From Eledone cirrhosa (lineage: Eukaryota), in assembly GCA_964016885.1 (NCBI GenBank), contig OZ024742.1:328848001-328912000 (forward strand): 64,000 nucleotides of DNA, written 5' to 3'. Position numbers and translations under genes: made by a program. This document shows, one piece after another, positions 47,203-48,251 of the stretch. How positions within the stretch are numbered: position 1 is the first letter of the stretch; the number at the start of each line of letters is the position of its first letter. The notes under the pieces were generated by a model. It searched no databases and was not told the DNA's origin. It worked only from the letters and a program-made list of their open reading frames with translations.

Positions 47203-48251
47203 AATTAATATTTGATGAACATTTACATGTTATAGTTGCAATTGACTAATAAGATCGCTAGAGTGAAAAATCTTAATTCAACAACATACGGTCTGCCTAT
47301 ACGATCTAGAAAATAATAAATCAATACTCACAGACTCATATGGGCAAAAAGCCTTGGTACCTAGACACGTTTAAAATTCAAAATACAAACTTTTTCCGCA
47401 GATCGGTCAGAACTTCAAACTTCAAACATGTTTCACAAAGGATGGTATAATAGTAAAATAATTAACTAATTAGCAGTGAGTTAATCAACTTTTTCTGTGT
47501 TTATCAATAGGTACCCAGATAAAAATAAAATAACTCAACCTCAGAAAAATATCTAAGGTCTGGTTAGCGTAGCGAAAATACACGAGGTTTTGCACACGGC
47601 TTATTTCAGTCCTCTAACGTCCCACACATAGTGCTAGAAATATGATTGTAAATTACCTCTTTGAGTCTAAACTCTAAGCTATTTATCACTGCTCCCCCAG
47701 GTGAGCTGAATTTTGTAATCCCATATAAACGGCTGTTATTTCTAGCACTATGTGTGGGACGTTAGAGGACTGGAATAAACCGTGTGCAAAACCTCGTGTA
47801 TTTTCGCTACGCTAACCAGACCTTAGATATTTTTCTGAGGTTGAGTTATTTTATTTTTATCTGGGTACCTATTGATAAACACAGAAAAAGTTGAGTAACT
47901 CACTGCTAATTAGTTAATTATTTTACTATTATACCATCCTCTGTGAAACATGTTTGAAGTTTGAAGTTCTGACCGATCTGCGGAAAAAGTTTGTATTTTG
48001 AATTTTAAACGTGTCTAGGTACCAAGGCTTTTTGCCCATATGCGTCTGTGAGTATTGATTTATTATTTTCTAGATCGTACAGGCACACCTTATGTTGTTG
48101 AATTAAGATTTTTCACTCTAGCGATCGTATTAGTCAATTGCAACTATAACATGTAAATGTTCATCAAATATTAATTTATACTGCTCAGAAGCGATTCCTA
48201 GAGCTGAAATGATTGTAAATGACCTCTTTGAGTCTAAACTCTAAACTATTT
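47203..48251. mobile_element. Fold-back PLE-type element: ~440-bp inverted arms, 567-bp plus-strand unit with terminal direct repeat, (TA)n flanks
   Basis: 47203-47641 inverted at 47738-48177; 47642-47684 repeated at 48209-48250. Confidence 0.88.
47864..48023 (+). ncRNA. 160-nt type I hammerhead with UUGAUAA (U3:A8) core; inverted copy at 47356-47515
   Basis: ggtaccta-TTGATAA-ac-acaga..tctgt-GAAA-catgtttgaa..tttaaacgtg-TC-taggtacc. Confidence 0.72.

Follow-up and report, generated by a model that had tools for sequence, protein, structure and literature searches.

Results

A non-coding repeat at (TA)n carries an oversized hammerhead motif

A non-coding 567-nt repeat was found to carry one type I hammerhead motif of unusual size (160 nt) with a compensated U3:A8 core pair, and its sequence points to a real hammerhead belonging to a Penelope-like (PLE) type of element as the most likely reading. 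The repeat lies within the 64-kb stretch of DNA that was analyzed (hereafter the window), a microsatellite-rich piece of animal DNA with many repeat families, probably cephalopod (octopus-like) to judge by its SINE-like repeats. The features of the focal repeat are listed in Table 1 together with those of a diverged sister unit. We regard the repeat as probably a retrozyme-type PLE that is non-autonomous, with a hammerhead predicted to cut as a single copy.

Table 1. Coordinates of the focal element, its hammerhead motif, and the sister unit, given as window positions.
Feature	Positions	Strand	Description	Basis
Left (TA)n tract	46919..47202	.		
Inverted partial copy of 47737-48180	47199..47642	-	ends in (TA)n	
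Left-copy hammerhead, inverted	47356..47515	-	family-state bases at both differing sites	
Element body	47642..48250	+	567-nt unit plus 42-nt terminal repeat, ends in (TA)n	
Right-copy type I hammerhead motif	47864..48023	+	predicted cut after 48015	sequence, folding, descriptor scans
Core 5' box TTGATAA (U3...A8, A9)	47872..47878	+	no variant at 3% or above in 4 runs	sequence
Extra AC dinucleotide separating A9 from stem II	47879..47880	+	first base varies A/G/T	
Stem II	47881..47944	+	5 proximal pairs, internal loop plus bulge, AT-rich distal helix	
GAAA box (G12-A15.1)	47945..47948	+		sequence and reads
Stem III	47948..48014	+	20 pairs (6 G-U), 7-nt periodic, starts with 6-nt palindrome ACATGT	
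Right (TA)n tract	48247..48311	.		
Short inverted copy of sister unit	14783..14837	-	ends in (TA)n	
Diverged sister unit	14826..15372	+	~497-nt period, 39-nt terminal repeat, hammerhead at 15035-15113	

The 567-nt period is set by the terminal repeat (47642-83 and 48209-50), and the body amounts to 1.07 units. No single piece contained two full units in succession, but 12 reads from two starts cross a joint leading from 48221 back by 567 to 47655, which shows head-to-tail copies. Ends in the reads also recur at 48180, from where the sequence continues into TA. The inverted arms (47199-47642 and 47737-48180) are 444 bp long with 9 differences, the inversion junction carries imperfect microhomology, and the hammerhead is present twice because it lies within these arms. 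The tandem-plus-inverted layout in (TA)n that an initial annotation had described for the 567-nt unit is real. The described signature of PLE insertions (PMC8557442) combines partial tandem copies, an inverted copy alongside, a tail of 30-40 bp, and a preference for microsatellites, (TA)n in particular, as targets; the focal element shows a partial tandem, a neighboring inverted copy, a tail, and a microsatellite target.

Truncated, partially tandem, and inverted PLE ends that resemble the focal element (PMC8557442), together with GIY-YIG-like fragments nearby (one of them at 48319-48900), could be read to mean that the unit is a pseudo-LTR, the 3' end that has come away from an autonomous PLE, inserted as a 5'-truncated copy with no self-propagating non-coding family. 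We judge this improbable. The unit has no ORF of at least 90 aa, its end is connected to its start with a spacing of 567 nt both in the window and in the reads, the sister unit has a closed period as well, and the fragment at 48319-48900 is set off by (TA)n and has no sequence in common with the unit. We found no autonomous partner sharing the ends of the unit in the 64-kb window, which counts against the non-autonomous PLE reading, and the same window gave no sequence link to the pseudo-LTR of an autonomous PLE. Two conserved boxes led to 118 metagenome loci; a profile of the two units gave no match better than E 0.02, and these profile matches were taken as chance.

Anatomy of the 160-nt motif

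Inspection of the sequence and of the pair tables located the motif in the right arm and in the inverted copy, with three helices in the order I-core-II-GAAA-III-NUH-I. The 8-bp stem I, the TTGATAA and GAAA boxes, and the GUC site claimed in the initial annotation were all found. Stem I of the right copy (47864-71/48016-23) consists of eight Watson-Crick pairs; the core combines the U3:A8 pair with U4, G5, A6, and A9; and the letters for G12, A13, A14, A15.1-U16.1, and H17 are present, with G12 predicted to pair with the extra C of 47879-80. The two extra bases had been omitted from the motif as first drawn. An alternative stem II register that dispenses with them (3 bp) was 6 kcal/mol worse with a probability of 0 and was rejected. 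Stem II has the five proximal pairs previously noted (47881-85/47940-44) around 54 nt and closes at 10.1-11.1 with A-U, not G-C; the supposed 54-nt loop is partly helical on folding, with a 9-bp helix in the left copy.

Stem III had been described as up to ~19 bp with several G-U pairs, and we counted 20 pairs (47948-67/47995-48014), A15.1-U16.1 included. The palindrome at its start (47948-53) is almost repeated at 48009-14, beyond a 7-nt-periodic spacer, and stem III itself gives 29 matches of 60 at a period of 7 nt, against 11-20 when other periods are tried. This suggests that stem III began as a minimal palindromic stem and was lengthened by duplication. The stem is asymmetric between strands (-17.6 versus -1.8 kcal/mol), and its non-Watson-Crick pairs are all G-U; these properties counted for little with us, since G-U pairs had been permitted in defining the helix. 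Judged from this anatomy, the motif is likely to work like a hammerhead, with cleavage at the GTC site predicted after 48015.

Chance tests and database searches

In an AT-rich fold-back repeat, such a motif could be a chance fold, its stem III being slippage of a 7-mer that pairs with itself through G-U. The 7-nt periodicity of stem III and the lack of an Rfam hit fit that account, which we nevertheless find very hard to credit. None of 40 dinucleotide shuffles of the window gave a hit with at least 20 paired positions; under a looser descriptor, none of 60 window shuffles reached 19, versus a score of 36 for the focal motif; and the sister unit, the stem III of which is only 6 bp, has its hammerhead at the conserved position and shows compensatory changes. 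Slippage may account for the length of stem III but not for the motif.

Rfam returned no hits at the gathering score over the whole window. At E values up to 10 over positions 47200-48250, it returned six hits (E 1.3-8.3) with no hammerhead among them. The forecast that standard searches would miss the motif was thus correct, but the failure is not particular to large motifs, because canonical-core minimal hammerheads in the window were likewise missed at the gathering score, and we ascribe the result to a detection limit.

Predicted folding alone, in the unit, and through the palindrome

Folded in isolation, the motif yields a three-way junction, with z scores of -2.98 and -2.60 for the right and left copies, respectively. 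The pair between the extra C and G12 is predicted with probabilities of 0.98 (right copy) and 0.47 (left copy) and would take ~3 kcal/mol to open. We treat this prediction as a caution and not as a refutation because the folding model mispairs core bases in all three of the canonical-core control hammerheads of the window. The expectation of a monomer fold was borne out for the isolated 175 nt but is weakened in the context of the unit, where a local hairpin (47860-66 with 47879-85) competes with the hammerhead of the right arm and the probability of stem I ranges from 0 to 0.77 over a range of transcript lengths and temperatures. Stem I probabilities were 0.02-0.18 for the circular right-arm unit and 0.09-1.0 for the left arm, the latter varying with ends and temperature, and stem III formed in all unit-context folds. 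The focal unit beat its shuffles on the + strand only (z -2.71, versus +1.07 on the - strand), and the corresponding values for the sister unit were -2.07 and -0.63. As had been proposed, the length of stem III suffices for a monomer, but a transcript through both arms folds to a long duplex in which the stem I probability is 0 and the motif is lost. We conclude that the palindrome is not part of the ribozyme because read-through of both arms abolishes the predicted fold.

The predicted C-G12 pair and competing hairpin, which would hold the hammerhead off, and the fact that both genomic copies run intact across the cut site are compatible with the same element having a hammerhead that is structurally kept but very slow or protein-assisted, and with its spread from uncut multimers. 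Published precedents exist: PLE min-HHRs have low activity (PMC4209133), and PLE hammerhead cleavage has been described as protein-assisted and dispensable for insertion in vitro, as for the PAc hammerhead, which needed protein (PMC11167929). We nonetheless consider a slow motif rather unlikely, since efficient monomer cleavage has been described for fungal PLE hammerheads with a large helix III (PMC4209133), canonical cores too come out mispaired in the folding model, and the compensation at 3:8 between the focal and sister families implies selection on the active-site pair. Cleavage as a single copy remains the reading that we prefer for the focal hammerhead.

Comparison with the sister unit

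The sister unit aligns over the whole focal unit, each flank being significant (0 of 200 shuffles each), whereas the hammerhead region alone aligns insignificantly (83 of 200 shuffles score as high). Like the focal element, it ends in (TA)n. The sister hammerhead sits at the same position within the unit and has the core CAGAAGA (C3:G8, A4), GAAA at 15086, and GTC at 15103-05, and none of 3000 shuffles of the sister unit reached its score. After A9 it reads ACACAG, as in the focal copy, giving the same junction with two extra bases. On the basis of a single pair of sequences (the sister and the left focal copy) aligned by their core motifs, 19 stem pairs could be compared: nine were unchanged, six had changed on both sides, two showed one-sided changes with pairing kept, and two were broken. 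A G-U pair in stem II is common to the two families. The 3:8 pair is C-G in the sister and U-A in the focal copy, so that this pair has switched within the lineage. The sister copy, with A4 and two broken pairs, may be decayed. Among the sequence data, this comparison is our best evidence for selection on the hammerhead fold.

Family variation in public reads

Six of eight listed sequencing runs were compared with the element; X4 and X5, which gave small pieces only (2 and 1 records, respectively), were not used. The reads reveal a multi-copy family with subfamilies, for which depth gives no copy number. T is the family state at 47941 and 47895, and at 47941 it accounts for all of the X1 depth and for 44/45, 37/37, and 34/34 reads in X6-X8, respectively. 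It follows that the right arm carries private changes (U to C at 47941). The inverted copy does keep all elements of the motif, as initially annotated, but the C-to-U change placed there is the family state, which rules out the C/U difference between the arms as evidence of compensation.

Over 206 nt, we recorded 20 variant rows at a frequency of at least 3%. None fell on the 13 core positions, where ~1.3 would be expected, a difference that is not significant alone. Eleven lay in stems I, proximal II, and III, and of these five keep the pair, four break it at low frequency, and two (47959 and 48003) keep pairing only jointly and are often seen apart. Variation within the family is too sparse for a test. 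An X1 contig with a depth of 155 reaches into the core from a loose end at 47908 and reads GAGAA, then T, then CACAGA; this corresponds to G5-A6-G7-A8-A9, with differences only at position 7, which is free, and at the first of the two extra bases, over a span that excludes positions 3-4. In another related family (61 reads, loose end at 48032), GTC is followed by a similar stem I strand. Two short boxes of the unit, 47716-47748 and 48032-48082, are common to several other families in the reads, with ~5-10 fold jumps in depth and distinct loose ends, and are candidates for promoter or protein-recognition signals of a superfamily.

Other elements in the window

The initial annotation had presented the focal motif as a second, independent U3:A8 family. 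The window does hold another large U3:A8 type I candidate, at 44141-44262 (-) within the region 44130-44271, with a score of 19 that none of 60 shuffles reached. It has TTGATAA at 44262, a C-A mismatch, an 8-bp stem II with a ~55-nt loop, an interrupted stem III, GTC at 44141, and a 5-bp stem I, and it stands head-to-head with a GIY-YIG-like fragment at 44498-44998. No similarity to the focal unit was detectable (88 of 200 shuffles scored as high), which makes a separate origin of this candidate plausible; the U3:A8 pair as such had already been published for PLE hammerheads.

Several further families were recorded. The array at 40083-41552, with four tandem copies of a 310-nt unit at 99% and an inverted copy in (TA)n, is a textbook, very recent non-LTR retrozyme; each copy has a canonical-core minimal hammerhead with a palindromic stem III and U-U at 10.1-11.1 (z -4.89 as a circle). 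A 430-nt tandem-plus-inverted family in (TA)n at 15563-16934 has ACGGCTG in common with the conserved box of the focal unit, and the descriptors used found no hammerhead in it. Inverted hammerhead copies with the core CCGAAGA (U4C), at 33813-33851 (-) and 35907-35945 (+), flank a GIY-YIG-like fragment at 33939-34508. Type I hammerheads that combine a canonical core with stem II domains of ~50 nt and a palindromic stem III occur at 36847-36917 (+) and 27024-27095 (-), so a long stem II is common in the source genome.

Directly to the right of the focal element, 48319-49330 holds a PLE-like endonuclease fragment with a pseudo-LTR-like stretch downstream, and a related stretch at 50248, in the region 50229-50352, has a canonical minimal hammerhead. 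None of the GIY-YIG-like fragments and canonical minimal hammerheads elsewhere in the window shares sequence with the focal unit. From their cysteine linker and Y-x-G motif, we take the GIY-YIG-like fragments to be PLE endonucleases; Pfam matches were weak (E 0.04-0.08, for 2 of 5 fragments), and protein searches aimed at the PLE clade yielded 92 and 22 candidates, of which not one reached E 0.001. An open frame of 1085 codons at 6596-9853 (+) has endonuclease and reverse-transcriptase motifs and is presumably an RTE-like LINE.

Discussion

The closest relatives of the focal repeat are the animal non-LTR retrozymes, PLE derivatives of 51-972 bp (Cervera and de la Pena 2020, PMC7229834; Li, Clavereau and Pollet 2026, 10.64898/2026.07.22.740005), a range that includes 567 nt. 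As described in those reports, they resemble the focal unit in being non-coding and PLE-derived, in carrying one type I hammerhead, and in their low GC and head-to-tail copies. Their motifs have a helix III of 1-2 bp, unlike the 160-nt focal motif, in which a U3:A8 pair and two extra bases go together with a long stem II and a stem III of 20 bp. Expansion of Penelope in coleoids has been reported (PMC8967140), in a source the available part of which makes no mention of ribozymes.

Among minimal metazoan PLE hammerheads, U3-A8 occurs in ~1,300 Schistosoma PLE-type motifs with one extra base after A9 (PMC4209133), and the Cercyon motifs share with the focal one the type I topology, the U3-A8 covariation, an extra base after A9, and a PLE-type context. 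The minimal motifs differ in having no helix III, being predicted dimers, and having G10.1-C11.1, where the focal motif has a long helix III and A-U, and in the published PLE motifs one base follows A9 instead of two (PMC4209133). Natural U3:A8 variants, previously shown to be active, and tolerance of U-U at 10.1-11.1 have been reported for hammerheads (PMC3088659). The initial annotation called the focal motif the opposite of the minimal PLE hammerhead; monomer types with a long helix III were already known in fungal and protist PLEs (PMC4209133). Those hammerheads, from EN-deficient PLEs, are likewise of type I; their helix III is large, their helices I and II vary, and they show no recognizable loop-loop contact. 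The focal hammerhead differs in belonging to an animal, to a non-coding, (TA)n-inserted element, and in its U3:A8 pair. The discontinuous Clec2 hammerhead documents that very large natural insertions (150-1500 nt) exist, although it is of type III, resides in a mammalian 3' UTR, and has its insertion in helix I (PMC6155905). In sum, U3:A8 and a long helix III were already published for PLE hammerheads, and the focal motif would be novel in combining them as it does. In the literature covered, which was incomplete and the supplementary catalogues of which could hold similar motifs, no animal element was described with this combination, and no test of two extra bases after A9 turned up.

In the mechanism that we propose, tandem copies of the 567-nt unit would be transcribed, and the 20-bp stem III would let each hammerhead fold without a partner. 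Cuts after 48015 would release 567-nt monomers, which may circularize. A PLE reverse transcriptase/GIY-YIG protein, supplied in trans, would nick (TA)n and, starting at the 48250 end, copy a template intact across the cut site; we infer an uncut multimer or a religated circle because both genomic copies span that site intact. More-than-unit copies would thereby be inserted at (TA)n, and the inverted copy could arise at microhomology, where synthesis switches template or is primed a second time. The 1-kb palindrome would be left behind as a by-product when the element inserts, and it would inactivate the ribozyme in RNA that reads through it.

A broader idea is possible, and we put it forward tentatively as less likely than not: a class of large (120-160 nt) type I hammerheads acting as monomers may have evolved in animal non-autonomous PLEs and be invisible to current descriptors. 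A dimer-dependent PLE hammerhead would, in the focal family, have become a "dimer in cis", one unit supplying both halves; the 3:8 pair would flip between sister families; and the unrelated candidate at 44141-44262 (-) would show repeated origin in one genome.

The surprise is limited in that each separate ingredient of the focal hammerhead has been published. If the motif cleaves, the envelope of natural hammerheads would be wider, extending to U3:A8 combined with two extra bases and long stems II and III, and surveys with short-stem descriptors would undercount animal retrozymes. The sister families constitute a natural series (a long versus a 6-bp stem III, and U3:A8 versus C3:G8) in which to ask what kind of cleavage, by monomers or by dimers, PLE-type elements depend on, if they depend on any.
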